Assembly (NCBI GenBank): GCA_963749155.1
Contig: CAVVLO010000002.1
Coordinates: 928,001-992,000, forward strand
Source of the DNA: an uncultured Armatimonadia bacterium
Lineage (GTDB): Bacteria > Armatimonadota > Zipacnadia > CAVVLO01
DNA: 64,000 nucleotides
Direction: 5' to 3'
Below the pieces are notes generated by a model that ran no database searches, was not told the origin of the DNA, and worked only from the letters and a program-made list of their open reading frames with translations. The translations under genes were made by a program, and so were the position numbers. This document shows positions 43,864 to 62,697 of this stretch, one piece after another. Numbering within the stretch: the stretch's first letter is position 1; each line of letters begins with the position of its first letter.

Positions 43864-44258
43864 CGATTGGAAGAGGGATGTTGCGCGAGGTAACGCTCCA
43901 GCAACAATACCGCAACATAGTCGTCTATCGGCCCCGGGGGCGTCTGCAGCGAAACTGGCAGCAGGCGCCTCCAGCCTTTTGGAGGATTTTCCACGAAATA
44001 GCGCTTCCGGGCGAGCAAGGTCGTCTCTCGTTCATCCACCAGGGTGACTGGAATACCGGAAGCCTCGGCAAGCCCCTGGGCAAGAGGCTTGTGCCCTGTA
44101 CCCGCACCTACTATCACCGCTGACAATTGCCCTTTATGCCCAGCAGCGAAAACCAGCAGGTCCCCAGGAGACAGGATGCCTCGTTCAAGCAGACGCCCTT
44201 CCGAATCAGCCAGGGCATATCCCGCCTTCTGAGTGCCTGGGTCGACGGCAAGGATCAT
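43860..44258 (-). CDS. YqgF/RuvX-like RNase H-fold protein
   Basis: LAVDPG..K.G.A, VDERETT..AR, IDDY.A. Confidence 0.8.
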   Translation of the reverse strand: MILAVDPGTQKAGYALADSEGRLLERGILSPGDLLVFAAGHKGQLSAVIVGAGTGHKPLAQGLAEASGIPVTLVDERETTLLARKRYFVENPPKGWRRLLPVSLQTPPGPIDDYVAVLLLERYLAQHPSSNR

Positions 44259-45853
44259 TAGTTAGCCTCGGGCTGGGCGGGCGGGGCAGCGGGCTGCACG
44301 GTGAAGTCGAGTTCGACAGGCTGCAAGGTGCGGTTCAGCTTGCGAGCTTTGATACCTACATCTACCGGCCCGGTCTGGTCGATTATGAGGTCCAGCACCT
44401 CGAGCAATTGCTCCCCCGGCACTACGCCATGAGTTTCTTGCGTGGCCGCATAGGGATCGCGTTCTACTATCCTGGCGCGAACGCGCTCGGAGATAGTCTG
44501 GGCCAGCCTGTCATAGAGCCGGGGCAGTGGCCAGTCGGGTTGGACCCTCACTGTCGCGAGCACTTCGCCCTCGGTAAAGAGCACCCGGTCGGGCACGAGC
44601 TGAAGCCTCACAGGGACTGTCTCGCCCCGCACAGTGTTAATGACGCAGACAAGCTGAACCACAGAATCCTCGCCGAGGTCGCCCATCAGGGTCGCAATAT
44701 GGGCCTCGGCTTTTTCGCCAGTCAGCGCCTGGGCTTGTTCGCCAGGAGCGCCTACCGCTATCAGGATAAGTTGGGGCTGGTCGCCAGTCGTCGGACCCGT
44801 AGCCTTGGTGGCGTTGTCCAGCGCGGTCTGCCAGAGCTTCTTCGCCTGGTCGCGCACATACCATTGAGGGGAAGACTGCTTGATACGCGTATCGGCGACG
44901 ACATCCAGCGGTTTGAGGACAATCGTGCCAGCGCGCATCCCAAGCAACTCGGCGACCGTCTGCCTTGCCATTAGTGAAGCCTCGGCAAGCTGTTGCTGAT
45001 AATGCGTAACCTGGGCCTGGAGGCTTTCGGCTTCCTGTTCGAGGGCGCGACGCCGTTCTTCAAGTGCCTGGTTGCGGGCCTGGGTAGTGGTGAGCTGCTC
45101 TTGCGTAGCAACAAGCTCGGCGCTGGTGTGAGCAAGCTGCTGGCGAGAACTGGCAAGCTCTACCCGCTGCGTGTCGAGTTCGGCTCGGACCATCTCCAAA
45201 GCGATTGTTTCTCGGTCCAGCGACTTGGAGAGATCATCCATCTGCAGCCTGGCGCCTGCGAGCTGGCCAAGTGAGGCCTGTAATTCCTTTTCGCGCGCTG
45301 CCACAAGCTGTTCGGTGGATTTCAAGTCCTTTTCGAGCTTGGTCTGCAACACCCCAAGTTGCTTGTTGCGGCTGGCCAGGGTCGCATTCTGCTTCTTTAG
45401 GGCCACCAGACTGGATTGAAGCCGCTTGTACTGGGCGCGCGTTGACTCAAGGCTTGCCTTCATCGTAGCCAGTTGCTTGCGCTCACTCTCGAGTTCGGTC
45501 TTGAGCCCCTGGCTGCTGGCCTCGAGTTCGCTTAGCTTCTCCTGGCTGGTTGTAAGGTGAAACTGGGTGCGTTCGACCTGGAATTGAAGCTGTTTTTGCT
45601 CGGTCAACAACTGGTTGATGTGGAAAAGCCCCATCCTGGCCTGGCTGGAAAGTGCCAGCATGACAATCAGGGTGAAGATTGTGATAGCCATACCGACCGC
45701 GACGCTGATGAGGGTAGCCGTTGTACGAGGCCTGAGACCAAAAAGAGAGAGGCGTTTTTTGCCCAGCCTGTATCCGAGCAGGTCGCCCAGGTAGGCGATA
45801 CCCCCACTAACGATCACCAATATTACAAGCAATAACCAGCCTTGGGCTTCCAT
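44258..45853 (-). CDS. DUF3084 membrane-anchored coiled-coil protein
   Basis: GGIAYLGD.LG...GKKRLSLFGLRPR.TA signature, long heptad region, globular C-terminus. Confidence 0.88.
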   Translation of the reverse strand: MEAQGWLLLVILVIVSGGIAYLGDLLGYRLGKKRLSLFGLRPRTTATLISVAVGMAITIFTLIVMLALSSQARMGLFHINQLLTEQKQLQFQVERTQFHLTTSQEKLSELEASSQGLKTELESERKQLATMKASLESTRAQYKRLQSSLVALKKQNATLASRNKQLGVLQTKLEKDLKSTEQLVAAREKELQASLGQLAGARLQMDDLSKSLDRETIALEMVRAELDTQRVELASSRQQLAHTSAELVATQEQLTTTQARNQALEERRRALEQEAESLQAQVTHYQQQLAEASLMARQTVAELLGMRAGTIVLKPLDVVADTRIKQSSPQWYVRDQAKKLWQTALDNATKATGPTTGDQPQLILIAVGAPGEQAQALTGEKAEAHIATLMGDLGEDSVVQLVCVINTVRGETVPVRLQLVPDRVLFTEGEVLATVRVQPDWPLPRLYDRLAQTISERVRARIVERDPYAATQETHGVVPGEQLLEVLDLIIDQTGPVDVGIKARKLNRTLQPVELDFTVQPAAPPAQPEAN

Positions 45854-45865
45854 CTGCTCCGCGAC

Positions 45866-46996
45866 TCAGTTGTTGGCTCGCCAGGCCAGCACAAGTCCAG
45901 CTGCGGCGAACACGAAATTGGCAAGCCAGGCGGCAATGAAAGGTTCGAGCCGGCCTGACTGACCCAGTATGTCACTAAAATGCATTACCAGGTAATAACC
46001 AAAAATGATCAGCACCGAAAGCCCCAGGCCAAGGGATGCCCCTGTCCTGTGTCGCCTGACTCCGAGTGGAGCGCCAATCATCACAAATACCAGACAAGTA
46101 AAAGGCAGTGACGTACGCGTGTAGAGCTGGGTCTTTAGTTCCAAAAATTCCGGCGTTTTCAAACTGGCCGCTGTAGCAGCAACCGAGAGTTCGTTTAGCC
46201 GGCGCCTCAATTCGACGAAGGTCATCTCCTCAGGTGACTTGGCCCTGGTGAGCAAGTCCTCGGGCTTTGCCTGTAACTGTTGGGTCAGCCTGGCAATCTT
46301 CGCCGTAATGGGTTTCTGGTCCGGATTCTGGCTTGTGACCAACTCGACCAAAGTGCAATCGGTAAGCACCCAGTCGGTGCCTTGCCATTCGGCTTTGGCT
46401 GCGGTCACGAGCGCTGCCGGTTCTTCCCTCTCATCGTAGTGTACCAGCGTAACTTTGTTAAGCACCAAAGCTTTGGGATCATAAGTGTCAGCAATTACCG
46501 CTTGCTTCAGTTTACCTTCTTTGCGCACCTGGTACATCGCGGAGTCGAGTTTGCCTACCTCATAACCTTTCTGGACCATCCCGGCTTCGAGGTAGGTTAG
46601 CCTCAAACTGGCCCGGGGCACCAGTACCTCGGTAAACATCAAGGTCAGTAAACTAATCCCCAATCCGAAAAGCAGAGCGGCTCTGCTAATTCTCAGAAAG
46701 CTCGCCCCCGAGGCTTTCAGCGCAGTAACTTCGGCATCGCCTGACATCCGCCCCATTGCAAGCAGGGTACCTAGCAGCATCGCCATCGGAAAGGTGAGCA
46801 CGAGCAGGGCAGGCAGCTTGAGGATCGTGAATTCCAGCGCGACCAGCGCGGGCACGTTTTTTTCGCTGACCATCTGGAGAAATTTGAACAGCAGGTTGCC
46901 CGCTATCAGCAGAGTGCTGAAAGCAGCTACCCCGAACAGGAAATTCGGGGCCAGCTCCTTGGCTACATAGCGGTCCAGTGTCTTCATCAGCAGCAA
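45866..46996 (-). CDS. LPS export ABC permease LptF/LptG (single copy in the window)
   Basis: LDRY, P.A.LLG.LL..GRMS.D.E..AL.ASG.S, AAWL.N; follows lptB. Confidence 0.9.
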   Translation of the reverse strand: MLLMKTLDRYVAKELAPNFLFGVAAFSTLLIAGNLLFKFLQMVSEKNVPALVALEFTILKLPALLVLTFPMAMLLGTLLAMGRMSGDAEVTALKASGASFLRISRAALLFGLGISLLTLMFTEVLVPRASLRLTYLEAGMVQKGYEVGKLDSAMYQVRKEGKLKQAVIADTYDPKALVLNKVTLVHYDEREEPAALVTAAKAEWQGTDWVLTDCTLVELVTSQNPDQKPITAKIARLTQQLQAKPEDLLTRAKSPEEMTFVELRRRLNELSVAATAASLKTPEFLELKTQLYTRTSLPFTCLVFVMIGAPLGVRRHRTGASLGLGLSVLIIFGYYLVMHFSDILGQSGRLEPFIAAWLANFVFAAAGLVLAWRANN

Positions 46997-47018: not shown

Positions 47019-47738
47019 TCAGGCTGTGAACCTCTCTCCCAGGTAGAACTTGCGCGCGATGGGGTCGTTGACCAGATCGGCTGGCGTCCCCTCGGTGAGT
47101 ATCTTCCCGTCGTTGATTATGTAACTGCGATCTGTGATCTGGAAGGTCTCGCGCACATTATGGTCTGTCAGCAGCACGCCAATGCCCCGCGCCTTGAGAT
47201 GCAGTATGATGTCCTGGATATCGTTGATTGCGATTGGGTCTACCCCTGTAAAAGGCTCGTCCAGCAGAATGAATTTCGGCTCGATACAAAGAGTACGTGC
47301 TATCTCTACGCGGCGCCTTTCGCCCCCCGAGAGAGCAAAACCCATCTGGTCTTTCAGGTGAGAGATGTGAAACTCCTCGAGCCGGTCAGCTATGATGCCG
47401 TCCTGCTGCTTGCGAGTCAGCCTTTGGAGCTCCAGCACGATACGCAGGTTGTCTTCGACAGAGAGCTTCTTGAAGATGGAGGGCTCCTGGGCCAAATAAC
47501 CCAGTCCTTTCAGCGCCCGGCGGTGCATCGGCAGGCCGGTGAGATTCTCTTCATCCAGCAGGACACGCCCGGCATTTGGCTTTACAGCGCCCATTATCAT
47601 ATAAAAGGTAGTGGTCTTGCCCGCGCCATTTGGACCGAGCAAGCCAACGACCTCTCCTGTGCCTACGCTAACTGAGAGGTCGTCCACTACACGCCGTTTA
47701 CCATAAATTTTGACCAGGTTGTTGCCAGACAAGTTCAT
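47019..47738 (-). CDS. lptB: LPS export ABC ATP-binding protein
   Basis: GPNGAGKTT, GYLAQEPSIF, LSGGERRRVEIAR, TDHNVRET, YLGE.F. Confidence 0.96.
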   Translation of the reverse strand: MNLSGNNLVKIYGKRRVVDDLSVSVGTGEVVGLLGPNGAGKTTTFYMIMGAVKPNAGRVLLDEENLTGLPMHRRALKGLGYLAQEPSIFKKLSVEDNLRIVLELQRLTRKQQDGIIADRLEEFHISHLKDQMGFALSGGERRRVEIARTLCIEPKFILLDEPFTGVDPIAINDIQDIILHLKARGIGVLLTDHNVRETFQITDRSYIINDGKILTEGTPADLVNDPIARKFYLGERFTA

Positions 47739-48691
47739 CCTTGAACCGCCTCTGGCGCCCCTGTTATGAGGCCTTTCTCCACGCGTACCTTGCCCTGGTC
47801 AATCAGAAGGATTATGCGTTCTCCCTTAACCGTTGGAGGGGCTTGACCTTCTTGCTGAGGAGCAAGCTGCAAAGTGACGTTCCCCGTCAGGACGATTTGG
47901 CTCTCGGCAGCGGAATAGGTCGCGTGGTCGGCATGGCCGGTGGCCTTTCGCGTGCCGCCTGAACTGGTCGCAAGCAGTGACTCGACAGTGACGTTACCGG
48001 TAGCCACGGCTGAAGCAAGGTTCGTTCCCTGGCCCATCTCTGCAGTCAGAGAGTCCGCTTGAAGCGTGCCCTCAGGCGCCTTGATGGAAGTTTTTTCCGA
48101 AGCTGTAATCTTGCCGTCCCGCAGAGAATAGCTGAGCTTGCCGGCGGTAAGCGTGCTGGTGGTTGTGCCCTCTCCGTTGCCTGAAACCATAGTCAGGACA
48201 GAGCTGCCTTCGGATGCAAAGAGCTGGTCGCTCTGCGAGTACGTAGCCGAGGGCGCCTTGAGGCTGACCTTGCGCAGCAGACCCAAAATACCTGCCGCGC
48301 GCAGTTCTACGCCTCCACTGAATACCAGGTTGCCGGTATTAGCCAGATATTTCGCAAGACCCGCGGTGCTATGCACGAGAATCTGATTTCCATCGCTGGT
48401 TGTAAATTGCCCATCGAACTGCAGATTGCCCTGAGCCTGGGCGCCCAGGACACTGGAAAGGTCAGAACTAAGGGTGGCTACGACCTCATCACAGGTCATA
48501 CGCCCCTGATCGAGCTTTAGCGCGCAGTTACCAGTCGCCGTAAACTTGTCGTTTTCTATGTCCCACTCGATGAGGTCAGCTTCCAGCGCGCCGTTGCCTA
48601 CCGAGTTGGCTGCAATTGCCAATCCATTGCCAAGCAACATCACGAATCCAATTGCAAGGAGCCCTGCGAGCGCTCTCATTTTTCTCACCAT
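47735..48691 (-). CDS. lptA: Extended LptA/OstA-like periplasmic protein (two repeats)
   Basis: Signal peptide; beta-rich; two A.GN...A.Y......V..G.V.L repeats; between lptC and lptB. Confidence 0.75.
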   Translation of the reverse strand: MVRKMRALAGLLAIGFVMLLGNGLAIAANSVGNGALEADLIEWDIENDKFTATGNCALKLDQGRMTCDEVVATLSSDLSSVLGAQAQGNLQFDGQFTTSDGNQILVHSTAGLAKYLANTGNLVFSGGVELRAAGILGLLRKVSLKAPSATYSQSDQLFASEGSSVLTMVSGNGEGTTTSTLTAGKLSYSLRDGKITASEKTSIKAPEGTLQADSLTAEMGQGTNLASAVATGNVTVESLLATSSGGTRKATGHADHATYSAAESQIVLTGNVTLQLAPQQEGQAPPTVKGERIILLIDQGKVRVEKGLITGAPEAVQG

Positions 48692-49233
48692 GTCACCTTT
48701 GGCGAACCAGACAGGCGCAGTCTGGAGAGCCTGAGATCGCTCTCCAGCTTGCTCGCTGTCAGTTTGGCCCCTTTACGGCTGGCGGTGATACTGCCCTCCG
48801 CTGTAAGTGTATCCGCGCTGAAATCAAAAACCAGCCTGTCAGCCTCAAAACGCAGACCGCGTGTCTGGCTCCAGGCCACAAACTTGCCGGTCAGCGTCAG
48901 GTGGCGCGTTTCTCTGTCGAAGGCAAGTTCTGGCGCGCGCACAAACAAGACCTGCTTGCCGGCTTCCCTGAGGCTCAGTTCTATACCGCTTGCTGTAACC
49001 CTGGGTTGTTCCAGGCCGCCCTCAATTCTATCACAGGCCGCCTGCCACTCCAGCTTGCCATCCGCGCTGGAGCCGGAAAGACTGAGTTTAGTTGCGCTAA
49101 TCTCAGGTTTACCGTCACTACCAGGCCCAGAGGCCGGTTCTGGAGGACGGACAGGCCAAAAAACTACCAGCAGCACCATTACAACAGCCGCCACAATTCC
49201 GCCATAAAGCAGTAGTCTGGTCTGTCTGCTCAT
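48685..49233 (-). CDS. lptC: LptC-like protein
   Basis: Single N-terminal TM, G...W...A motif, beta-jellyroll-like composition, position before lptA. Confidence 0.75.
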   Translation of the reverse strand: MSRQTRLLLYGGIVAAVVMVLLVVFWPVRPPEPASGPGSDGKPEISATKLSLSGSSADGKLEWQAACDRIEGGLEQPRVTASGIELSLREAGKQVLFVRAPELAFDRETRHLTLTGKFVAWSQTRGLRFEADRLVFDFSADTLTAEGSITASRKGAKLTASKLESDLRLSRLRLSGSPKVTW

Positions 49234-51077
49234 TCCCCAACACCAGGCAAAACAAACAGGCTCACGCGGTTTTGCGAGGTGAGCAATCGCAGTTCTCTCT
49301 TTGCGACAAGCTCCTCCAGCAAGGCGGGCAGGCGGCCAGTCTTGGGCATAAAGCTGAAATTCACCAGCATATAGTCATAACCTTGTCGGTGTAGCTCCTC
49401 AATAAGCGCCTCAGCATCTGCCAGTTTCGAATAATCTACCAGCAACTGGTATTCCTGTTCGCCCCAGAGATAGCCTCGATCGAGATAAAGGAGTCGCGGT
49501 TCGCCATAACATATGACCTTGGCGTCTTGAGGAAGGTTGCGATTTGCCCAGGCCAGAGTCTCATAGGGTTGCAGACCGGCTGTGAGCCAGGGCTCTGGTT
49601 CCGCCAAGCCGACAGCGACAGGCAACTTCACCAGAGAAGGCAAAACCAGCCCAGGCAGGTTAGCGAGAAGGCCAATCCCAAGCGCAGTCGCAATCGCCCA
49701 GCGCACCTTGGGCGCGCGTTTCCACAGTTCGACGAAAGCCCATCCGCCAGTCGCCGCCCAGATAGCCACCGAAGGCAGTAGATAGCGGATCTGCTGCATG
49801 CTGACAAACCAGCCAAGTGCCAGCAACAACGCCGCCAGATTGGCCCACTTGAGGCTCGAGGGAAGAGGCTTTACCAGTAAAGCCAAGGGCGTCAGTGCCA
49901 GGAAGAGCGGACCGATCTCGCCAAGCAACGAGCCGCTGTCGAAGAAAGCAGCCGCATTGAAAGTCAGGTCGAAGGGCAGCCTGATAAACTGCAGCGGCGA
50001 ATGGCCCAGGCCAAAGGCGAGTTGCTCTGCCCTGTAATGAGCGGCAGCCTCGGCCGACCAGTTGGCCCCACCGAAAATCGAGTAAAGAAAGGGATATACT
50101 GGATTTCCCGTCCAGGCCCAACTGCGAAGGAACCAGGGCAGGGCGATTAGCAAGGCCGGTAGACCAACCATCGCCAATCGACCGACAAGAACCCCGATGC
50201 GCTCTCTCTGCTTCAGCCCTGCCAGCAGCAGAAGCGCGCATACAATTACGAGCCACATCAGGCTTGAGAGTTTGAATCCGATGGCAGCGCCAACCAGCAG
50301 GCCGGTAAGCACCCAGAGCCGTGGCCTCGGTTGCTCAAGCGCCGCTAGTAAAGTGACCAGGCTGGCAAGCGTTGCCCAAACGAGTGCCAGGTCAATATAG
50401 GCGATAGTGGCTTCCCATAATATAACTGGCGCTGAAACGAGCAGCAGGGCAGCCAGCATACCCCCGCCCTTGCCTGCGCGCTGGGCAAGTGAATAAACCA
50501 GCAGCGCTGTGAGCAGCAGGAAAACCCAATGCAGCATCTGGGCTGCCGCAAGAGGCCCCAGGACGGCTGGTAGCGTGAAGACGAGTTCCAGCGCGAAGGG
50601 CTGGCTTGCGTGTTTTATGAAGGGCACATAGTGCATCTGGCCCGCTTCGGCGTAAAGCTTCGGCACGGCCAGGTGGTAAGAAATCGCATCCCAGTCATTC
50701 ACCCCTGGCGGAGCCAGAGTCTGCACCAGCGCGAGCAACAGCAGCAGCGCAGTCAGCAGTGAAAAAACTTTGTTGGCCTTCGTTACCCGCAAGGTGGCGC
50801 GCAGCAACCGGGGGGTCACTTTTCCAAGAGGGACGATGCCCCAGGAAATTAGCGCCGCCAGCAAAGCCAGCAGGGCCAGCGGAGAAAGCAGCCCAAGCGC
50901 GCCGAACAGCAGCATCACAAGCGAGAGCAAGGTGAATCCAAGTCCAACTGCCAGCGAGATTCGCGCCGCCAGGCCGAGCTGTGCAATGAAAAACAATCGC
51001 TCCAGGCGCGCGCCAGCGCTCGCGGCCGCAAGGGTCACGAGGGCAGCAAGCGCAATTGCCTGAAGCTGATCGGGCAT
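49230..51077 (-). CDS. GT-C fold (ArnT/PMT-like) polyprenyl-phosphate-sugar glycosyltransferase
   Basis: PP...WDAISYHLAVPK, AYIDL, PWF.RSW..TGNPVYPF, Q.RYLLP; many TM helices. Confidence 0.7.
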   Translation of the reverse strand: MPDQLQAIALAALVTLAAASAGARLERLFFIAQLGLAARISLAVGLGFTLLSLVMLLFGALGLLSPLALLALLAALISWGIVPLGKVTPRLLRATLRVTKANKVFSLLTALLLLLALVQTLAPPGVNDWDAISYHLAVPKLYAEAGQMHYVPFIKHASQPFALELVFTLPAVLGPLAAAQMLHWVFLLLTALLVYSLAQRAGKGGGMLAALLLVSAPVILWEATIAYIDLALVWATLASLVTLLAALEQPRPRLWVLTGLLVGAAIGFKLSSLMWLVIVCALLLLAGLKQRERIGVLVGRLAMVGLPALLIALPWFLRSWAWTGNPVYPFLYSIFGGANWSAEAAAHYRAEQLAFGLGHSPLQFIRLPFDLTFNAAAFFDSGSLLGEIGPLFLALTPLALLVKPLPSSLKWANLAALLLALGWFVSMQQIRYLLPSVAIWAATGGWAFVELWKRAPKVRWAIATALGIGLLANLPGLVLPSLVKLPVAVGLAEPEPWLTAGLQPYETLAWANRNLPQDAKVICYGEPRLLYLDRGYLWGEQEYQLLVDYSKLADAEALIEELHRQGYDYMLVNFSFMPKTGRLPALLEELVAKRELRLLTSQNRVSLFVLPGVGE

Positions 51078-51081
51078 CCAG

Positions 51082-51222
51082 CTAACCTCCGAGGAATAAC
51101 GCCAGCTTTTGGGCTAGCGCATAAAGAGTGATGACAAGCGCCCAGCCAGCCAGGAGTAACAGCAAGGGGCCTTGCTCCAGACGCAGTCCCGAGGAGGCGG
51201 GAGGTTCGTGTTTTTGTTTCAC
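51082..51222 (-). CDS. 46-aa single-TM microprotein
   Basis: Not in the ORF track. GTG overlaps the upstream TGA (GTGA); MKQKHEPPASSGLRLEQGPLLLLLAGWALVITLYALAQKLALFLGG fills the gap and its end carries the GGAGG RBS of the next gene. Confidence 0.6.
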   Translation of the reverse strand: MKQKHEPPASSGLRLEQGPLLLLLAGWALVITLYALAQKLALFLGG

Positions 51223-51944
51223 AGTGAGATGACCTCCCAGTCAGTTATGCGCCAGTCGCCAGGGGCGCCTTCCAGAGTCAGCGCCCCCACAGTCTTCGCG
51301 TGGTCGCCGCTATGCACTATATATGAATTGCCATATTCCAGTGGTTGCTCGGACAGACTGTGCGTATGGCCCCCGAGAATCAGGTCGAAATCGGCAACTT
51401 CTGCAAGCCGTTTGTCCTCGCCGATACCAATATGAGTCAGCGCAATCAGCAGGTCGGCTTGCTCGCGCAGTTCGATGGCGGTGTCCATACCCGCGGTTAT
51501 CGGGTCGAGGAAACTGGCTTTCGTCACGCCCTGCCAGAAGGTGCCTGGCCTCACCATTGGCACCATCAGGCCAGTTATACCGATACGGATTCCCTGATGC
51601 TCAAGCAGGAGATACGCTTGCAGTCCAGTTTTACTGGACTCAGGCAGCTTGAGGTTCGCGCACACAAGCGGCATCGAGAAGCGACCGGCTTTGCGCGCAA
51701 GCCCAGCCTCCCAAAGGTGGAATTCGCGATTGCCGAGGGTCTTGGCAGTGTAATCCAGGCCATTCATAAGGCCAACTAGCGGTTCTTCGAGCAGGCCAAG
51801 TCCTACATTGGCGGCCCTCAGGGCATCTCCACAGTCAAAAAGCAGCGCGCCTCGAGCCTGTTTTAGCTCTCTGAGGTGTTCTGCCTTCTCCGGCGTCAGT
51901 TGCCCGTGGAAGTCCGAGGTGTGCAGCAAGCAGAGCCGGGCCAT
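51219..51944 (-). CDS. Calcineurin-like metallophosphoesterase (UshA/5'-nucleotidase N-terminal domain only)
   Basis: HTSDFHG, DCGD, LGNREF, LTHIG, ILGGHTH; no signal peptide and no C-terminal 5'-nucleotidase domain. Confidence 0.85.
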   Translation of the reverse strand: MARLCLLHTSDFHGQLTPEKAEHLRELKQARGALLFDCGDALRAANVGLGLLEEPLVGLMNGLDYTAKTLGNREFHLWEAGLARKAGRFSMPLVCANLKLPESSKTGLQAYLLLEHQGIRIGITGLMVPMVRPGTFWQGVTKASFLDPITAGMDTAIELREQADLLIALTHIGIGEDKRLAEVADFDLILGGHTHSLSEQPLEYGNSYIVHSGDHAKTVGALTLEGAPGDWRITDWEVISL

Positions 51945-51956
51945 CTCGCGGGCCTC

Positions 51957-52508
51957 CTACTGGGCCAGATACCAGTCTACGACTTGCTTCAGCTTGCCCT
52001 GCTCGCGCAGCAACCAAACTAGCAGCTCACGGACCGCCGAGTCGCCTCCGCTGCGGGTGGAGACATGCGCCGCGAGCGCCTTTATCTCGTCAGGCGCATT
52101 TGCGACCGCCAGTGGCAGCCCGCAGACCTTGAGCCCGGCGGCATCCACATAGTCATCGCCGATAAAAGCGCACTCTTCCAGGGTCACGTTGTTGAGACGA
52201 CAAAGTTTTTTCAGGGCGTCGCCCTTATTGTTCATCCCCTGGATGACATTGTAGGGGGCGACTTTGAATTCTCTTGCTCGCCTGCGGACTGTCTCTGACC
52301 TGCGCCCTGTCGCGAGCGCCAGTATTAGCCCAGCCTTGCGGGCGGCGGCGAAAGCCCAGCCATCAGCAGCATCGAAGGATTTGATGAAATCGCCCTGCTC
52401 GGTAAAGTAGATGCGCCCATCGGTCAGGGTGCCGTCCACATCCATCGCCACCAGTTTGATGCGCTGGCAGGCGGTGTTGAGGTCAGTCTTCCACAGCGGT
52501 TCTTCCAC
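51957..52508 (-). CDS. kdsC: KDO 8-phosphate phosphatase
   Basis: MDVDGTLTDG, F...DG, TGR.S, IGDD..D, GG..AVRE. Confidence 0.93.
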   Translation of the reverse strand: MEEPLWKTDLNTACQRIKLVAMDVDGTLTDGRIYFTEQGDFIKSFDAADGWAFAAARKAGLILALATGRRSETVRRRAREFKVAPYNVIQGMNNKGDALKKLCRLNNVTLEECAFIGDDYVDAAGLKVCGLPLAVANAPDEIKALAAHVSTRSGGDSAVRELLVWLLREQGKLKQVVDWYLAQ

Positions 52509-52511
52509 GAA

Positions 52512-53483
52512 TTACACCACTTTGCTCTTCAGCAGGTCTTGTACGTCAATTACGCCAAGGCAATTGCCTTGCTCATCCACCACAGGCAGGTTGTCCAGTT
52601 CGCGTGCTTCCATCAGGGCAAGCGCTTCGGTGGCCAGCTTGTCTGGTGCGATAGTCGTGGGATTCTTCGTCATCACATCACCGATACGGCTCTGAAGCAC
52701 ATCGCGGTCCTTCTTGAGACTGCGGCGCAGGTCGCCATCGGTGAAGATCCCAAGTAGCTTGCCTTCGGGTGAGATAATATTGGCGACGCCTCGCAGCTCG
52801 GAACTCATCATCAGCAGCAGAGTCTCTTCGACTGTGGCGTCGGGGCCGATTGTCGGATTATGCTCGCCTTTGTGCATCACATCGCCCACCCGCAGCATTG
52901 CGCGACCAAGCGCCCCCGCGGGATGGAAAAGCGCGAACTGCTCGCGCGTGAACTGACGCGCCTTCATCACGGTGACCGCAAGCGCATCCCCCATGGCAAG
53001 CAGCGCGGTAGTGCTGGTCGTTGGCGCCAGGTTGTGCGGACAGGCTTCGCGCTTGACGCGCACAGGCAGGACCAGGTCGGCAGCCTGGGCAAGCTGGCTT
53101 TCCGGCACTCCAGTCATACAGGCGAGTTTTGCGCCAAGTCGGCGTATGGTCGGCACCAGACGCAAGACTTCGTCGGTGCTGCCACTATGAGAAAGCGCAA
53201 TTATGAGGTCTCGTTTCGTGACCATCCCCAGGTCGCCGTGGACGGCTTCAGCCGGGTGGAGGAACAAGGCAGGGGTGCCCGTACTCGCGAAGGTAGAAGC
53301 AAGTTTGCTGGCAACTGCGCCGCTCTTGCCGATACCGGTCATTATGACGCGTCCCTCGAGGCCAAGGATTATCTCGACCAGCTCGGAGAAACACTCGTCC
53401 AGGCCTTCGGCAAGCTGCTGGATAGCCTCGCTCTCGAGGTGCAGGGCTTCGCGGCCACTTGCAAGATACTCCTCCCGGCTCAA
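52512..53483 (-). CDS. kdsD: Arabinose-5-phosphate isomerase (KpsF/GutQ, SIS + 2 CBS)
   Basis: TGIGKSG, HPAEA.HGDLG, EACP.NLAPT.ST, FHP.GALG, CBS pair. Confidence 0.95.
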   Translation of the reverse strand: MSREEYLASGREALHLESEAIQQLAEGLDECFSELVEIILGLEGRVIMTGIGKSGAVASKLASTFASTGTPALFLHPAEAVHGDLGMVTKRDLIIALSHSGSTDEVLRLVPTIRRLGAKLACMTGVPESQLAQAADLVLPVRVKREACPHNLAPTTSTTALLAMGDALAVTVMKARQFTREQFALFHPAGALGRAMLRVGDVMHKGEHNPTIGPDATVEETLLLMMSSELRGVANIISPEGKLLGIFTDGDLRRSLKKDRDVLQSRIGDVMTKNPTTIAPDKLATEALALMEARELDNLPVVDEQGNCLGVIDVQDLLKSKVV

Positions 53484-54307
53484 ACCGACTCCCTCCTGAC
53501 AAGTTCAGAAAGCGCTTTGCACTGACGGGCCGTGCGACGGAAAGCTTCGAGGTCCAGCATATTCGGCCCGTCCGAGAGCGCAGCCGAAGGATCTTCATGT
53601 ACCTCGAAAAAGAGCGCGCTTAGCGCGCCAGTTGCGACCGCGGCGCGCGCAAGCACTGGCGCCAGGCGCGAATCGCCTCCCGATTTCCCTCCCGCCCCGC
53701 TTGGTTTCTGCACACTATGAGTGGCATCGAAAACCACCGGATAACCGAGTTCGGCCATCTCTACAAGGCCTCGCATATCCACTACGAGGTTGTGGTAACC
53801 GAAAGCGCTGCCTCGCTCGCACAGCAGAATCTGATTGTTGCCGGTACTCTCAATTTTTTTCGCGGCCCAGATCATATCGCCCGGCGCGGCCATCTGCATC
53901 TTCTTCACATTTACAGGCTTGCCAGTTTCGCCAGCGGCGACCAGCAGGTCGGTCTGGCGCGCCAGCATCGCCGGAATCTGCAGCAAATCCGCGACAGAAC
54001 CAACCGGATCGGCCTGCCATACCTCGTGTAAATCAGTACATATTGGAAGACCCGAAGCCGCGCGCGCTTTGGAGAGGATATCCAGTCCAGCTTCCATTCC
54101 TGGCCCGCGATAACTGTCTACCGAGGTGCGATTGGCTTTGTCGAAGGAAGCCTTGAAAATCAGTGGCAAGCCTTCTTCGCGGGCGATCTCGGCAAGCGCC
54201 ATCGCAAGTTTCACCGTGTGTTCTTCCGATTCGATGACACAAGGTCCGGCGATAAAGAGTAGCGGGGCAGTTTCGCCCACGGGCAGTTTTGCAATTTTGA
54301 AACTCAT
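53480..54307 (-). CDS. kdsA: KDO 8-phosphate synthase (metal-dependent type)
   Basis: AGPCVIES, FDKANRTS, ERG..FGY..LVVD, DATHSVQ, E.H..P..A.SDG. Confidence 0.96.
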   Translation of the reverse strand: MSFKIAKLPVGETAPLLFIAGPCVIESEEHTVKLAMALAEIAREEGLPLIFKASFDKANRTSVDSYRGPGMEAGLDILSKARAASGLPICTDLHEVWQADPVGSVADLLQIPAMLARQTDLLVAAGETGKPVNVKKMQMAAPGDMIWAAKKIESTGNNQILLCERGSAFGYHNLVVDMRGLVEMAELGYPVVFDATHSVQKPSGAGGKSGGDSRLAPVLARAAVATGALSALFFEVHEDPSAALSDGPNMLDLEAFRRTARQCKALSELVRRESV

Positions 54308-54314
54308 CTCGGAG

Positions 54315-55058
54315 TCACTTCTTCTTTAGCAACTCGGCAGCAAGCTCGCGCGCCGCTTCAAGGTCAGCGGGCGTGTCAATGCCAAGTGAGATGTGGTCGG
54401 TATCGCCCACGAAAATCCGGTGGCCGTTCTCCATTACCTTTAACTGTTCGAGCGACTCGGAAAGCTGCAAGGTAGTCGGCGGCAACTTGGCCATCCCAAG
54501 CAGGAAGTCCCGCTTGTAGGCATAGACGCCCAGGTGGATAAAATGGGGCACATCCATTATTTCGCCATCGCGCACGTAGGGGATGGGCCAGCGCGAGAAG
54601 TAGAGGGCGAAACCCGCCAGATCGCGCACAACCTTCACTTTGTTCGGATCCATCACTTCCTCTTTGCCTGTCGGAACGCGGCAGAGGGTACTCATCAGCA
54701 GGTCGGGATACTTCTCGAAGGGAGCCACGAGTTCGTCAACGACGGTGCGAGAGAGGAAAGGCTCATCTCCCTGCAGGTTGCAGACGATGTCACAGTCCAG
54801 CCCAGCCGCCACTTCGGCGATGCGGTCGGTGCCGGTGATGTGGTCGGAGCTTGTCAGCGCAGCTTTACCACCGAAACCTTCGACGACATCCACCAGTCGC
54901 TGGCTGTCAGTGGCGACGATAACCTCATCGGCGCGGCCACTGGCGGTGCCTGCTTCATAAACCCATTGCACTATCGGCTTGCCCATAAGGTCGGCCAGAG
55001 GCTTGTCAGGCAGGCGAGTTGCAGCAAGCCGCGCAGGTATGACTACTACGACCTTCAT
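54315..55058 (-). CDS. kdsB: CMP-KDO synthetase
   Basis: IPAR..ATRLP.KPL, TGTDR..E, N.QGDEP, ALYFSR, ESLEQL. Confidence 0.96.
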   Translation of the reverse strand: MKVVVVIPARLAATRLPDKPLADLMGKPIVQWVYEAGTASGRADEVIVATDSQRLVDVVEGFGGKAALTSSDHITGTDRIAEVAAGLDCDIVCNLQGDEPFLSRTVVDELVAPFEKYPDLLMSTLCRVPTGKEEVMDPNKVKVVRDLAGFALYFSRWPIPYVRDGEIMDVPHFIHLGVYAYKRDFLLGMAKLPPTTLQLSESLEQLKVMENGHRIFVGDTDHISLGIDTPADLEAARELAAELLKKK

Positions 55059-55546
55059 TTTGCTTCCTCCTCGCGCATCTGCTGGATTACGGCGGTGGTG
55101 GACCTGCCATCGTGAAAGGCCAGGATGTGGATACGCCCTCCCAGGCTCTTCACGAGCGGCGCCTCGGGCAAGGTCTCGGGTGTGTAATCTCCGCCCTTGG
55201 CGTGGACAGAGGGCCTGATGGCCGCGATATTATCGTCAGGACGATCTTCTTCAAAGATGACCACATAATCTACGCACTCGAGCGCGCCCAGCAGCATCGC
55301 GCGCTCATGTTCGGGAAAGACAGGCCGGCTTGGACCTTTAAGGCGTTTTACCGAGGCATCGCTGTTGAGAGAGACTATCAGAAGGTCCCCTTGAGCCCTG
55401 GCTTCGTTGAGTGATTTGATATGCCCAACGTGAAGCACATCAAAGCAGCCATTGGTGTGGACGATGGTCTTGCCCTCGGCATGCAGCAGATCGGCAATCC
55501 GGGTAATCTGCTCTCGAGTCTTGAGCTTGCCTGCTGGATAACGCAT
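55055..55546 (-). CDS. rfaE2: D-glycero-beta-D-manno-heptose 1-phosphate adenylyltransferase
   Basis: TNGCFDVLHVGH, LNSD.SV.RLKG..RP, KGGDY, STT. Confidence 0.9.
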   Translation of the reverse strand: MRYPAGKLKTREQITRIADLLHAEGKTIVHTNGCFDVLHVGHIKSLNEARAQGDLLIVSLNSDASVKRLKGPSRPVFPEHERAMLLGALECVDYVVIFEEDRPDDNIAAIRPSVHAKGGDYTPETLPEAPLVKSLGGRIHILAFHDGRSTTAVIQQMREEEAK

Positions 55547-55578: not shown

Positions 55579-56549
55579 TCAGGAGGCCGGGCAGTCAGGT
55601 GGAGCTTGCTTCATCCCATCCGGGGCGCTCTTGGGATCAGTCTTCCACCGCCTATGGACCCAGAACCACTCCTCTGGATGACGGCGGATCTGATCTTCGA
55701 TAGCCTTGGTGAAGGCCACGGTATTATCGTAAATGTCGCGTTGCAGATCGCCCGTGCGCACGATTTTAATTGGGGGAAGAATGTGTCCGATATGACGGTC
55801 GTTGGCGTCACGCTCTACAAAGGCTGGCACTACAACAGCGCCGCTCTTGATAGCGAAAGTGGCAGGCCCGGTGAAGGTAGAGGCCTCTCTCCAGAGGAAA
55901 GGCACGAAGATACCCCTGCGGCCAGCATTCTGGTCCATCAGAATAGCCAGGACCATATTCTGCTTGAGTGCCCGGAAAGCTTTGAGTGGTGAACTCATTG
56001 GGATCACTTGCAACCCGTTACGGCTTCGCGTAGCCATCCCAAAAAGCTCTATCAACGGATCGTGGAGCTTTTTGGCGATGGCAGCCAGGGGGTAACCCTT
56101 CTGCACCAGCCGGGCGCCCATAAGCTCCCAGTTGCCATAGTGGGCGGTGAGCAGAAGGACTCCCTTACCTTTGGCCAGAGCCGCGTCCAGATGCTCGATT
56201 CCCTCGATTGTGACACTTTTCTCGAGTTCCTCTTCTGTCCAGCGGAAGGAGTTGAGTACCTCCAACATTGTCTTGGCAGCGTTTCTAACTGACAGGAGCG
56301 CCAGCCTGCGACACTCTTTGGGGCTCTTCTCGGGAAAAGACGGCGAAGCTGCTGATAGGCAGTTATGCGCACGCGCGGCACAACAGGCCCAATCAGGTTT
56401 ACAATTGTATTGAGCAAAAAATATTGAGACTTCATAGGCAGCCGGGAGATATGCCGCGCCCACAGGACAGTGAGCGCGCGCCCAGCATTACGGCTAAGCT
56501 GGCTCAGCAGTCGCTTGGAGAAGGCTCCAGGCAACCTGACTTTCATCAT
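55579..56549 (-). CDS. lpxL: Lipid A late acyltransferase (LpxL/HtrB family); frameshift near 56333
   Basis: HYGNWE, DQN.G..G.FVPF, IR.HPE.WFW.HRRWK; N-terminus is in ORF 56052-56549 up to LFP, then shifts to EKSPKECRR. Confidence 0.85.
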
Positions 56550-57643
56550 CGGATCACATCATCAAGCAGGAGCGTCAGTCGCGTCGCAAGGAGGCTGGCG
56601 CCAAGCTCAAGGGTAAGTTGGGCCTGAACAATTCGCAAGGTCGCGGGAAGTTCAAGGCCGGCCAATTTTACCGCATCCTTCTCTGTGCAGACAATCACCG
56701 TCGCTCCAAGCGCCTGCCGGCGGGCTTCCAGTTCCATTATTTCGTCTTGCGTGTAGGAATGGTGATCAGGAAAAGACGCCAACTCGACCACTTTCGCGCC
56801 AGCCTGGCCAAGTGAAGCCTCAAAGCCTGCCGGGTTGCCGAGTCCGCAGAAAGCCAGCACCGACAGGTCTTGTAGCGCCTCAGGTCCAGCTTCTTCCCAC
56901 TGGCCGGGGGTCGCCAGTCTGACCAGTTCGTATTCAGCCCGCGCAACAGGCACAGAAGGAGCTTTACGTCCGACCAGGTCCATCACAGCGGCAAGTTCGG
57001 CCTGGCTCGCTTCCCCTGTGATAACGCAACAAGCAGCGTGCTCGAGCAAATCCAGGGGTTCTCTTAAAGCGCCCAGGGGAAGCAGCCGGCCTGCTTTCAG
57101 AGTCTGCCTGACATGGAGCAGCAATATATCAGCGTCGCGTTGCAACTTGAGATATTGAAATCCATCATCGAGCAGAGCCAGCTCGCAACCTGCCTGCTGA
57201 GCAAGGCGCAGGCTCTGCTGGCGTTGTTTGCCGACAACGATAACTGCCTCTGGCAGTTGCCGCTTCAGCATCAGCGCCTCATCTCCGACCAGTTCGGCAA
57301 GAGAGTCGCTCTCGACCACCTGGGAGGCGCCAGATTTGCCCCTGTAGCCGCGCAGCAAGAGGGCGGGACGATAACCTTCCTCAACGAGTAATTCCCACAG
57401 CCAGGCTACAAAGGCGCTTTTGCCAGTGCCCCCGACGCTGAGGTTGCCCACGGAGATAACGGGGAGGACAGGCTTTTCTCTCGGCAATAAGCCTCTTTCG
57501 TAAATCCACCGGTGGCCTTTGGCCATTAGCCAGCCGAGGGGAAAAAGCAGATAACACAGCAGGAGGAGGAGCCTGGCCTTGAAGTCTCGCCGGTCTTCGT
57601 AGACCGCCTGCGTCCAGAGTCGTTCCAGTCCGCCCTCAGCCAT
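56546..57643 (-). CDS. lpxK: Tetraacyldisaccharide 4'-kinase
   Basis: VISVGNLSVGGTGK, RGY, GDE, LDDGFQ..L.RD, LREP, FPDHH, TEKD.VK. Confidence 0.95.
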   Translation of the reverse strand: MAEGGLERLWTQAVYEDRRDFKARLLLLLCYLLFPLGWLMAKGHRWIYERGLLPREKPVLPVISVGNLSVGGTGKSAFVAWLWELLVEEGYRPALLLRGYRGKSGASQVVESDSLAELVGDEALMLKRQLPEAVIVVGKQRQQSLRLAQQAGCELALLDDGFQYLKLQRDADILLLHVRQTLKAGRLLPLGALREPLDLLEHAACCVITGEASQAELAAVMDLVGRKAPSVPVARAEYELVRLATPGQWEEAGPEALQDLSVLAFCGLGNPAGFEASLGQAGAKVVELASFPDHHSYTQDEIMELEARRQALGATVIVCTEKDAVKLAGLELPATLRIVQAQLTLELGASLLATRLTLLLDDVIR

Positions 57644-58940
57644 CGGCGCGCTCTAGCAACTCGGTCAGTTTGGCAACTGTGCGCTCGGAAGCACCTTTGT
57701 TGGCAGCCAGGAAGGCCTTCGCTCGAGCGCCAAAACTGGCGAGAAGCTCCTCGTCTCGCATCAGCCGTATGACCGCCTCGGCCAGGGCCTGCTCGTCCTC
57801 TACGACGTAGCAGACGTCCGCTTCAGTAGCCAGTTCGACAAGGCTGCGGAAATTTTGAAAATGAGGGCCAGTCAGGGGAGGCTTGCCATGCGCAAGCGGT
57901 TGCAGCAGGTTCTGCCCGCCCCAGTTGATAAGACTGCCACCCAGGAAAGCCAGTCGCGCAATCGCATAAACGCGCGCAAGCTCGCCCAGTGTATTCAACA
58001 ACACAATTTGCCTGCCTGATGTGACAGCACCAGGCTGCACCTCGGTGCGCAGGAGAGGCTCAAAACCTGCAGTTTTAAGCAGTTGCACCACTTCAGGCAC
58101 GCGATGCAAGTGCCGGGGCGCAATCAGGAGTCTGGCTTCGGGCACTGCGAGGCGTATTTGCTCGAAGGCGGTGAGAAGCTTGGCTTCTTCCCCCTCGCGG
58201 GTGCTGCCACAGACCAGCACCAGGTCGCCCTCGGCAAAACCAAGCTGGCGCTTCAAGGCCGCGGCTTCTTCGGGAGAGACTTCCGGCTCTGGCTCCTCGA
58301 ACTTCGTGTTACCACCCACTGCAGCCCTCTCTCGAGGCGCGCCGAAGGCCAGAGCGCGTTCCAGGTCGGCTTTCGACTGCATCAGGATGGCATCCAGTTG
58401 GCGATAGATAGCCCGGTAATACCACTTGAGCCTGGCGCCGCGTTTGAGCGTCCTGTCGCTGATACGCCCATTGGCCAGCATTAGAGGGATGCCCCGTTTA
58501 CGCGCCAGGAAGACCAGGTTGTACCAAAGCTCGCTCTCCATGAGTACCAGTGCGTCAGGCTTGAGGCGGGCGAAAGCTCTGCGCACGAACCAGGGGATAT
58601 CAAAAGGCAGATAAACCACCAGATCGGCAGGCAGATTACGTTTGGCGACCATCTCTCTACCCGTTGGGGTGACGGTCGAGAGGATCAGGCGGCAGTCGAG
58701 AGCGGCCTTGATGGCGTGGGCAAGCGGAGCGGCAGCGACGACTTCACCAACTGACACCGCATGAAGCCAGATAACAGGCTTGCCAGGCTCGAAGAAACCT
58801 TCAGGCACCTCGTAGAGCCCCCGGCGCTCGCGCCAGGTACCCTTTTCCTTGCCAGAGGCAAGCCGCCGATAAAGGAGATACAGCCCCAACCAGGGCGAGG
58901 CTAATAACAACAACGTATTGTATAGGTAGTAAATCCCCAT
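57636..58940 (-). CDS. waaA: KDO transferase
   Basis: W.HAVSVGE, YLPFD, E.ELW, NGRIS, GNTKF, STREGEE, APRH, F.GGS....GGQN. Confidence 0.95.
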   Translation of the reverse strand: MGIYYLYNTLLLLASPWLGLYLLYRRLASGKEKGTWRERRGLYEVPEGFFEPGKPVIWLHAVSVGEVVAAAPLAHAIKAALDCRLILSTVTPTGREMVAKRNLPADLVVYLPFDIPWFVRRAFARLKPDALVLMESELWYNLVFLARKRGIPLMLANGRISDRTLKRGARLKWYYRAIYRQLDAILMQSKADLERALAFGAPRERAAVGGNTKFEEPEPEVSPEEAAALKRQLGFAEGDLVLVCGSTREGEEAKLLTAFEQIRLAVPEARLLIAPRHLHRVPEVVQLLKTAGFEPLLRTEVQPGAVTSGRQIVLLNTLGELARVYAIARLAFLGGSLINWGGQNLLQPLAHGKPPLTGPHFQNFRSLVELATEADVCYVVEDEQALAEAVIRLMRDEELLASFGARAKAFLAANKGASERTVAKLTELLERADG

Positions 58941-60695
58941 CAGGCCTGTGAGGCGTCTCCCATAGCCGACTGGATCTGGTGCAGCGAATAGTAAAGCCCT
59001 CGCTGAGCAATCAATTCGTCGTGACTGCCCTGTTCAGCCAGCCGGCCGCGCTCCAGCACACAGATAATGTCGGCGTTGCGCACGGTAGAAAGCCTGTGAG
59101 CTATTACCAGGGTCGTGCGCCCTTTCATTAGTTTCTCCAGCGCCTGTTGAACAAGTCGCTCGCTCTCACTGTCCAGCAAGCTGGTAGCCTCGTCCAAAAT
59201 CAGGATGCGTGGATTGAGCAGCAGCGCGCGCGCGATGGCGATGCGCTGCCTTTGGCCACCAGAGAGGCTGACTCCGCGCTCACCAACCTGGGTGTCGAAC
59301 TGCTGGGGCAGCTTCTCGATGAACTCGACCGCGTTGGCGTTGCTGGCAGCCTCGAAGACTTCCTCATCGGTGGCCTCCAGATTGCCATAAGCGATATTGT
59401 CTTTCACACTGCCCGAGAAGAGCAAAGTTTCCTGCGGCACTATGCCCATCTGAGAGCGCAGCGAGGGCAGCGTTACTTTCGTCACGTCGTGGCCATCCAC
59501 CAGCAAGCGGCCCTTGGTCGCTTCATAAAGCCGAGGCACCAGGTTGGCTATGGTCGTCTTGCCCGCGCCCGAAGGCCCGACAAGAGCAACAATCTGACCT
59601 GGGGCTACCTCAAGGCAGAAATCCTCGATGACCCAGTATTCACTGGACTTGTACTTGAAGAAGACATGGTCGAAGGTCAGGCGCCCGGCGGCTGGACCAG
59701 GGAGCTGCTCTGCATCTGGCTCATCGAAGATATCTTCGGGGGTCTGCAGAACCTGGACGAGTCGCTCACTTGCAGCTTCGGCGTGCTGCATGTGATGTTG
59801 AACTTGCCCAGGTCCGTAAACTTGGCGCCTACCTCGCGAATCAGGAACAAAAAGCTGAAGATGGTATTGGTCTCGAGTCTTCCCGCTGTGACTTCGACGA
59901 AACCTAACCAAAGAGCCACAGTAAGCCCACGGCTGCGATGATTTCCACCACAGGGCGTTAGCGCTCCCCGCAGCCGTGCCGCGCGCATCAGGTCGCGGAA
60001 GTTGGTCATATTCTCGTGATGGAAGCGCTCGACCTCGTAGTTTTCCCGACAGAAGATCTGCACTATCCGGATAGACGAGATGGCCTCCTGCATAAAGGAG
60101 GTCATCTGCCCAAGCACCTGCTGGATGCGCCGGCCAATCTTGCGCATACGCCCTCCGGCCCCAGCGATTGCGATCCCAATAAGCGGCACGAGCAACAAGG
60201 TCAGCAACGTTAACTTGGGACTGATTTTCATCATCCCGCACAGAGCGCCGATGATAGTCACCGGATCTTTAATCATCTGGTTGACGCTGCCTGTCAGGCC
60301 CCGCTGGATAGTCTGGATATCATTGGTCAGTCTGGACAGCAACTGGCCAGTTGCCTGGTCTTCAAAATAACCAAGAGAAAGATGCTGAAGTTTGGCATAG
60401 ACCTCCGGCGCAGGTCTACGAGGCTACGCTGGACAGTAAATTCGGTGAAATAGGTGCTGGCGAAGTGGAAAACGCCTTTAACCAGAACAATGCCCAGGAC
60501 GACGATGGTAACCTCGATCATCTTGGCTCTGGCGTTGGGCCCTCCTTCCATCAGAGGGGCCAGAAAACCAGGCCAAGATAATAAGGCAACGCAGCGTTAA
60601 GGCCGCCTTCAATTACTGAACAGAGAATGGCAAGCAAGGCCCGCCACTTTGTAAGGTCTAACGAACACAAAGATTTCTCGGAAGGCGCCCAGCAT
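58940..60695 (-). CDS. msbA: Lipid A flippase ABC transporter; about six indels fragment the frame
   Basis: ATG overlaps the lpxB stop (TGATG). TMD pieces lie in ORFs 60327-60551 and 59677-60342; the NBD (GPSGAGKTT, LSGGQRQR, ILDEATS, IAHRLST) is in ORF 58940-60241. Confidence 0.88.
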
Positions 60696-62660: not shown

Positions 62661-62697
62661 AAGGGTCGGTCTCCCTTTCAACAAGGCTGAGCCAGAC

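Follow-up and report, generated by a model that had tools for sequence, protein, structure and literature searches.

Within a 64,000-nt stretch of contig CAVVLO010000002.1 from an uncultured Armatimonadia bacterium (positions 928,001 to 992,000, hereafter the window), a lipopolysaccharide (LPS) gene cluster contains a small metallophosphoesterase gene that we put forward as a candidate for the lipid X-forming step of lipid A synthesis. This candidate uridine diphosphate (UDP)-2,3-diacylglucosamine pyrophosphatase gene is an intact open reading frame (ORF) on the minus strand (51219..51944) that starts with ATG and encodes 241 aa, collinear from end to end with its aligned orthologues. Its Shine-Dalgarno sequence, AGGAGG (51953..51958, minus strand), lies eight bases from the ATG and overlaps the stop codon of kdsC (TAG, 51959-51957), which suggests that the gene is translationally coupled to kdsC. 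A PMT_2-type gene starts only 141 bases past the end of the ORF, so the gene is packed into the operon. Motif III of the encoded protein, G71-N72-R73-E74-F75, is read from positions 51720..51734 on the minus strand, with R73 specified by a CGC codon at 51728-51726. The original prediction, made from the letters of the window, had described a 241-aa phosphoesterase embedded in an LPS operon and carrying GNREF with an Arg codon CGC; the ORF, its translation and the residue positions all agree with that description.

Searches with Pfam and NCBIfam assigned the surrounding genes, which share the minus strand, and recovered every member of the lipid A and 3-deoxy-D-manno-octulosonate (Kdo) cluster that had been listed from the sequence. 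The upper half of the cluster runs through lpxC (63162-63953), fabZ (62698-63165), lpxA (61854-62684), lpxB (60695-61840), msbA (58940..60596), waaA (57636-58940), lpxK (56546-57643), lpxL (55579-56463), rfaE domain II, a heptose-1-phosphate adenylyltransferase gene (55055..55546; TIGR02199, 190.8 bits), kdsB (54315-55058; NF003952, 275.6 bits), kdsA (53480-54307; NF003543, 365 bits), the arabinose-5-phosphate isomerase gene kdsD (52512..53483; TIGR00393, 319.5 bits) and the Kdo-8-phosphate phosphatase gene kdsC (51957..52508; TIGR01670, 129.8 bits, over the cut-off). The phosphoesterase gene comes next, followed by its downstream neighbour, a PMT_2 / LIC_10190-like membrane glycosyltransferase gene (49230..51077), and then by lptC (48685-49233), an lptA-like gene (47735-48691), lptB (47019-47738), lptF/G (45866-46996) and a gene for a DUF3084 protein (44258-45853). 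Because only 13 bases separate lpxA from lpxB, there is no lpxI between them, as had been noted from the sequence. Two genes of the pathway are interrupted: msbA occupies three frames (58940-60268, 59677-60423 and 60327-60596), reflecting either two assembly frameshifts or a pseudogene, and lpxD, which lies about 400 kb off the cluster (G000:C2:1390209-1391139; loci L110/L111), is split over two adjacent frames scoring 204.8 and 138.9 bits. The assembly thus carries indels or pseudogenes.

The encoded protein belongs to the calcineurin-like metallophosphoesterases and most resembles the catalytic half of 5′-nucleotidases. Pfam assigns it Metallophos (PF00149) alone, at 33 bits against a cut-off of 21.5, and its NCBIfam matches are only partial, covering the N-terminal half of the SoxB, UshA-like, UshA, NadN and CpdB models and falling far short of every cut-off. 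The LpxH, LpxG and LpxI models gave no match to the protein in the NCBIfam scan, and Pfam found no LpxI domain in it. An AlphaFold2 model built from 41 orthologues reached a mean pLDDT of 96.3 and a pTM of 0.93, and Foldseek placed its nearest solved folds among the N-domains of E. coli UshA, E. coli c4898, human CD73 and NadN (E ~1e-19, TMq ~0.8, TMt ~0.4), with 1oid, 3ivd, 1ush and CD73 among the top matches. The TMt value is only ~0.4 because the matched structures carry a second domain. All metal-ligand motifs of the UshA/5′-nucleotidase N-domain are kept. A profile search against the PDB gave E ~1e-34, and in the resulting alignment R73 sits exactly on the His of the CD73 GNHE motif. No 5′-nucleotidase C-terminal domain (5_nucleotid_C, PF02872) is present in the protein, nor anywhere in the genome at E <= 0.01. 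Motif I, HTSDFH, occupies residues 8-13, and a protein that begins only seven residues ahead of it has no signal peptide; neither is there an N-terminal hydrophobic segment, and all 41 orthologues likewise start a few residues ahead of their first motif. The structural and domain searches therefore agree with the earlier description of an UshA/5′-nucleotidase-like catalytic domain without signal peptide or substrate-binding domain, and the best explanation for the protein is a soluble, cytoplasmic two-metal phosphoesterase descended from an UshA-type catalytic N-domain. The genome encodes a single paralogue (27% identity, 324 aa; G000:C1:448682-449680, minus strand; L006:1255-2229), which has an apparent signal peptide, a GNNEF motif III and the N-domain only.

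The Arg in motif III, found where 5′-nucleotidases have His, turned out to be a family-wide hallmark that aligns on the catalytic His of CD73. R73 is present in 41/41 aligned orthologues. When the window protein is aligned with 40 orthologues, which represent 26 families, no variation is seen at T9, D11, H13, D37, G39, D40, N46, G71, N72, R73, E74, N97, G125, H171, G173, G192, H193 and H195, and a G125-L-x-V-P-M loop is conserved as well. GNRE was likewise found in 120/120 homologues among the matches listed in our first database search. In a motif survey of the 150 best representatives from a library of 1.84 billion proteins, 79 of the 80 representatives of at most 320 aa carry GNR[ED]; in the remaining 70, which are long and multi-domain, GNH[ED] is nearly universal, one protein having GNREF alone and one having no such motif. 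In a FastTree phylogeny built from 86 GNR-type and 36 non-GNR N-domains, a single branch divides the two types; its Shimodaira-Hasegawa (SH)-like support is 99, a local support value in a midpoint-rooted tree. This topology is consistent with, rather than proof of, a single origin of the GNR type. An ESM Atlas search with the protein returned only Armatimonadota Metallophos clusters, and a genome-contig scan with this single sequence found one distant relative of 26% identity, which was uninformative.

Searches for the known lipid X-forming enzymes, which had been suggested alongside the original prediction, found none over cut-off, either in the genome itself or in the phylum. The genome (4.17 Mb in 7 contigs, completeness 100, contamination 5.87) has no match to LpxH (TIGR01854) or LpxI_C (PF06230) at E <= 1. 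The names of homologues, some of them from Chthonomonas calidirosea and Capsulimonas corticalis, place the organism in Armatimonadota. Our sample of this phylum comprised 201 genomes, 169 of them high-quality; lpxB (E <= 1e-5) is present in 195 of the 201 and in 168 of the 169, and LpxI_C in 0/201. LpxH and LpxG each reach their cut-offs in 0/201. LpxH spells its motif III GNRD. There are 14 weak full-length LpxH matches (~50 bits), and the four we examined (L044-L047 in G102, G131, G025 and G120) have GNHD, not GNRD, and thus lack the Arg. In one further genome (G174), a weak LpxH-like gene lies 8 kb from lpxB. Together, these searches suggest that the lipid X-forming step has no recognizable gene in this genome or in Armatimonadota.

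The phosphoesterase is widespread in the phylum: a match at E <= 1e-5 occurs in 164/201 genomes, and one at E <= 1e-26, where orthology was borne out by synteny, in 145/201. To describe its neighbourhood we used 40 hand-picked loci of up to 20 kb from 26 families (one to three per family, long contigs preferred), onto which the LPS proteins of the window were mapped by tblastn; we refer to this set as clade A. Counting genes on its own strand and no more than 1.5 kb away, the orthologue has kdsC/kdsD as a neighbour at 28/40 loci and a PMT_2 glycosyltransferase gene at 19/40, and 33/40 have one or the other; lpt genes or DUF3084 lie within 8 kb at 8/40.

A second, distinct LPS context emerged from metagenome contigs. 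Scanning these with an alignment of 12 short GNRE proteins as the query yielded 80 loci, of which 45 are of the short GNR type (193-276 aa) and 35 of the GNH/GNN/GNT type (mostly 430-690 aa). Counting lpxB upstream, TIGR03492 downstream, kdsC/kdsD upstream or PMT_2 downstream as LPS neighbours, we found one within 1.5 kb at 32/45 GNR-type loci versus 0/35 GNH/GNN/GNT-type loci. The commonest order, which defines what we call clade B, is lpxD-lpxC-fabZ-lpxA-lpxB-X-TIGR03492, with X the GNR gene immediately 3′ of lpxB, and lptB-lptFG-DUF3084 about 2 kb later (for example L118, L122, L125, L128, L133, L139, L141 and L160). Because lpxA and lpxB are only ~100 bases apart, these clusters have no lpxI either. 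Within 20 kb of the clade B loci we found no matches to kds, rfaE, lpxK or waaA. TIGR03492, annotated as 'lipid-A-disaccharide synthase-related', is the next gene after the GNRE gene at 20/45 GNR-type loci (range L116-L160), and in one 650-aa protein, P0230, a GNREF domain is fused to one that matches TIGR03492 with 305 bits (cut-off 219.2). In the phylogeny, the clade B sequences fall into a clade of 17 rows (support 100) and a group of 6, both distinct from the 63 rows of the Armatimonadota type.

Several observations concern the neighbours themselves. Among the 201 Armatimonadota genomes TIGR03492 occurs in one (G108), which lacks the phosphoesterase, and we therefore rejected it as a partner of the enzyme in this phylum; in that genome it sits between lpxB and an msbA-like ABC transporter gene in a GT2/GT9/PMT_2 cluster (L115, G108:C227:44000-63999). 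A DUF3084 coiled-coil gene directly follows lptF/G in both clades (L072, L075, L081, L088, L099, L125, L128, L133, L141 and L160), and its product may be an unrecognized LPS-transport accessory.

From the gene, its fold, motifs, conservation and context, and from the absence of known enzymes, we infer a substrate and a reaction. The reading that we find best supported, and in which we place middling confidence, is that the protein represents a fourth, UshA-derived type of UDP-2,3-diacylglucosamine pyrophosphatase that would fill the LpxH/LpxI/LpxG step. UshA hydrolyses UDP-sugars to UMP and sugar-1-phosphate, cleaving between the phosphates, which is the same bond chemistry. In the mechanism we propose, D11, H13, D40, N72, H171, H193 and H195 would hold a Mn2+/metal pair, which would activate a water molecule for attack on the alpha-phosphate of UDP-2,3-diacylglucosamine. 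R73, standing in place of the general-acid His of 5′-nucleotidases (the catalytic His of the UshA GNHE motif, His117 in E. coli numbering), would form a salt bridge with the beta-phosphate, which becomes the 1-phosphate of lipid X, in the manner of LpxH Arg80, and the products would be UMP and lipid X. A general acid would be dispensable because the leaving group is a phosphate. The loss of the nucleotide-binding domain and of the export signal, together with the exchange of the general acid for a phosphate-binding Arg, is what would be expected of an enzyme with a sugar-1-phosphate leaving group. In the P. aeruginosa LpxH structure paper (PMC5016852), the motif III His of metallophosphoesterases is described as taking part in catalysis, its replacement by Arg is reported only for LpxH, and LpxH Arg80 binds the beta-phosphate, that is, the lipid X phosphate. 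Opiyo et al. (PMC3087551) likewise highlight the His-to-Arg change in LpxH.

Compared with the enzymes already assigned to this step, the window protein shares with LpxH its class (a calcineurin-like two-metal phosphoesterase of about 240 aa, cytoplasmic), its Arg in place of the motif III His (GNRE here, Arg80 in LpxH; PMC5016852) and, if we are right, its reaction. It differs from LpxH, whose model TIGR01854 covers beta/gamma-proteobacteria, in having no match to that model (cut-off 190.35 bits), in a fold nearest to the UshA N-domain rather than to LpxH, and in its location within LPS clusters, in which, according to PMC3087551, lpxH is not found. LpxG (Chlamydia Ct461; NF033458) is also calcineurin-like and, according to PMC4807358, replaces LpxH in a lineage without LpxH and LpxI; it has GNHD and an N-terminal transmembrane helix in the same source, whereas the window protein has GNRE, no such helix and no NF033458 match, the weak match in this genome belonging to a YaeI-like protein on contig C1. 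LpxI (PF06230/DUF1009 and PF17930; alpha-proteobacteria and diderm Firmicutes) is unrelated in fold and mechanism, but its gene lies in the lipid A cluster beside lpxB, between lpxA and lpxB according to PMC3087551, much as the clade B gene directly follows lpxB. With UshA and the 5′-nucleotidases (1USH/1OID, CD73, NadN, SoxB) the protein has in common the N-terminal metallophosphatase fold and the dimetal-site motifs; it differs in lacking their C-terminal domain and signal peptide, in the change of the catalytic His to Arg, and in belonging to the well-separated GNR clade with its LPS context. More broadly, the short GNRE proteins may constitute a fourth independently recruited class, a catalytic domain cut from an UshA-type 5′-nucleotidase that underwent the same His-to-Arg switch as LpxH by convergence and that would supply lipid X in most Armatimonadota, in lpxB-X-TIGR03492 lineages and in some AT-rich uncultured bacteria. 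We regard this wider proposal as about evenly balanced.

A number of observations weigh against the assignment to UDP-2,3-diacylglucosamine hydrolysis. The gene has no match in 37/201 genomes at E <= 1e-5, mostly genomes with lpxB, and in 56/201 at E <= 1e-26; it is missing from family f10 (15/18 genomes), f15 (4/4) and f34, and in 5/5 genomes that lack it, a search with a family profile gave no match at E <= 0.01. Because these genomes keep lpxB, another enzyme must make lipid X in them, which is the main point against our reading, and that enzyme could act everywhere. In Armatimonadota the steady neighbours are Kdo genes and a glycosyltransferase (and also lpt genes), not lpxA/lpxB, and seven of the 40 clade A loci (f16, f23, f28 and f36) are surrounded by unrelated genes with no LPS neighbour. 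The P0230 fusion is a single sequence on a single contig, and TIGR03492 is over its cut-off not only in Synechococcus elongatus but also in Deinococcus radiodurans, both used as controls; the latter is not known to make lipid A. In a GNRES-type subclade, a stand-alone 5′-nucleotidase C-domain ORF lies directly upstream (L084:8710-9420, L151:9280-9879 and L157:930-1529) and no LPS gene is nearby; this arrangement looks like a split two-gene nucleotidase, and the function of the subclade may differ. Finally, the secondary structure of the model, the level at which it was inspected, shows short helices between core strands, with no sign of a large insertion, of a membrane anchor or of a helical lid like the one that holds the acyl chains of lipid X in LpxH. 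The proposed check of the structure for an acyl-binding lid returned the UshA N-domain fold with no lid visible at this level, and the expected co-occurrence with lpx clusters held as a strong link to LPS genes, with adjacency to lpxB seen in clade B and kdsC/kdsD, PMT_2 and lpt genes as the neighbours in Armatimonadota. The suggestion of a fourth lipid X-forming enzyme accordingly stands in part: the lack of LpxH, LpxI and LpxG, the LPS linkage, the Arg and the UshA N-fold speak for it, and the genomes without a match, the YaeI-like proteins discussed below and the lack of a visible lid or anchor in the model's secondary structure speak against it.

We also looked for substitutes in the genomes that lack the gene. 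Those of f10, f15 and f34 keep kdsD and complete-looking (lpxC)-fabZ-lpxA-lpxB-msbA-waaA-lpxK-lpxL clusters. In five of them, kdsD stands apart from the LPS genes and has no phosphoesterase gene in its vicinity, which led us to reject a substitute phosphoesterase beside kdsD. A substitute beside lpxB was rejected likewise, as 12 such genomes (f10, f15 and f34) showed no metallophosphoesterase among the 31 of 67 unlabelled ORFs sent to Pfam; one Exo_endo_phos ORF was found near lpxB in one of the 12. Two genomes of genus g89 in f34 (G119 and G128) contain lpxB-like and kdsD genes, but neither the GNRE gene nor any match to YaeI/LpxG-like proteins, LpxH or LpxI.

The explanation that competes most directly with ours turns on YaeI/LpxG-like membrane phosphoesterases, weak matches to which occur in 197/201 genomes, including all families without the GNRE gene except genus g89. 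These proteins would carry out the UDP-diacylglucosamine step, and the GNRE enzyme would be a lipid A- or LPS-modifying phosphoesterase that prepares the substrate for the adjacent glycosyltransferase (PMT_2, or the LpxB-like TIGR03492 protein in clade B); it might, for instance, act as a 1-phosphatase on lipid X, the disaccharide-1-phosphate or a lipid A precursor, or split some other diphosphate-linked intermediate. We consider this doubtful, though several points favour it. This genome encodes about ten metallophosphoesterases, among them a YaeI/LpxG-like tandem duplicate of 522 aa with hydrophobic segments (contig C1, G000:C1:418512-420089, minus strand; L005:448-2016), which scores 201.2 bits against the YaeI cut-off of 188 (NF008460) and 200.7 against the LpxG cut-off of 350 (NF033458). 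A glycosyltransferase flanks the GNRE gene in both contexts, the clade B loci are without kds, lpxK and waaA matches, and LPS from such four-gene clusters in cyanobacteria is described in PMC3087551 as lacking phosphate, which would need a dephosphorylation step. On the other side, no LpxG match reaches its cut-off, and weak LpxG matches of the same kind appear in the control genomes of Bacillus subtilis, Lactococcus lactis, Deinococcus radiodurans and Methanosarcina acetivorans, none of which is known to make lipid A. In this genome, no LPS gene was found in the 15 kb to either side of the YaeI-like gene. Nor does the glycosyltransferase track the phosphoesterase: PMT_2 homologues occur in 192/201 Armatimonadota genomes, family f23 has the gene with PMT_2 in 0/5 genomes, PMT_2 is found throughout f10 (18/18) and f15 (4/4), where the gene is mostly or entirely missing, and TIGR03492 is nearly absent from the phylum. 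We rejected a strict module of phosphoesterase and PMT_2 on account of this decoupling across families. Judging from LpxH as described in PMC5016852, moreover, an enzyme that has lost the general-acid His would be better suited to releasing a phosphate than a sugar alkoxide.

Two further functions were weighed. The protein might be a housekeeping hydrolase of nucleotides or nucleotide sugars (UDP/CDP, UDP-sugars or CMP-Kdo) that clears glycosyltransferase by-products or tunes precursor pools, which we think unlikely. Its fold and best sequence matches are indeed those of 5′-nucleotidase and UDP-sugar hydrolase N-domains, an Arg would be equally suited to any phosphoanhydride substrate, the model's secondary structure reveals no lipid-binding element, and in the three GNRES-type loci a separately encoded nucleotide-binding C-domain stands beside the gene. 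However, the usual nucleotide pocket is missing here, because the genome has no 5_nucleotid_C domain; the LPS link is tight and specific to the GNR-type clade; and a position straight after lpxB in clade B is hardly explained by such a role. Cytoplasmic UDP and CMP are, besides, usually recycled by kinases. A sugar-phosphate phosphatase that replaces a HAD enzyme, either as an analogue of GmhB (heptose-1,7-bisphosphate 7-phosphatase) or as a second Kdo-8-phosphate phosphatase, is very improbable in our view. The genome has no GmhB match (TIGR00213, E <= 0.001) although rfaE domain II is in the cluster, and the gene adjoins kdsC/kdsD at most clade A loci; yet rfaE domain II is present in f15 (4/4) and most f34 genomes, which lack the phosphoesterase, and gave no match in five of six f4 genomes with the phosphoesterase gene, a phyletic pattern that does not fit a GmhB analogue and led us to reject it. 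KdsC is encoded next door and scores over its cut-off, the clade B loci lack kds and rfaE matches, and the missing general-acid His would speak against a monoesterase. With no GmhB match, the ADP-heptose pathway of this genome may have a gap as well.

Only at its fourth step does the Raetz pathway rely on enzymes that are unrelated to one another (LpxH, LpxI and LpxG), and to our knowledge whole LPS-making phyla still have no known enzyme for this step. Bacteria without lpxH and lpxI are described in PMC3087551 as having no known enzyme for it, and Armatimonadetes are listed among phyla with core LPS genes in PMC5007114. Our literature search, which covered texts rather than supplementary tables, found no paper on an UshA-derived or fourth class of UDP-diacylglucosamine hydrolase, or on this step in Armatimonadota. 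What we add here is a phylum-wide pathway hole, a second, Kdo-linked context and a control that compares the contexts of GNR and GNH types, within limits set by the families without the gene, the YaeI-like proteins and the divergent split subclade. If the proposed fourth class is real, it would account for much of what LpxH, LpxI and LpxG leave uncovered, and would provide a clear example of active sites that converged, through a His-to-Arg change for a pyrophosphate substrate, in a different branch of the metallophosphoesterases. It would also complete the reconstruction of the lipid A pathway for Armatimonadota and related uncultured diderms, and allow better calling of 'LPS-positive' genomes.

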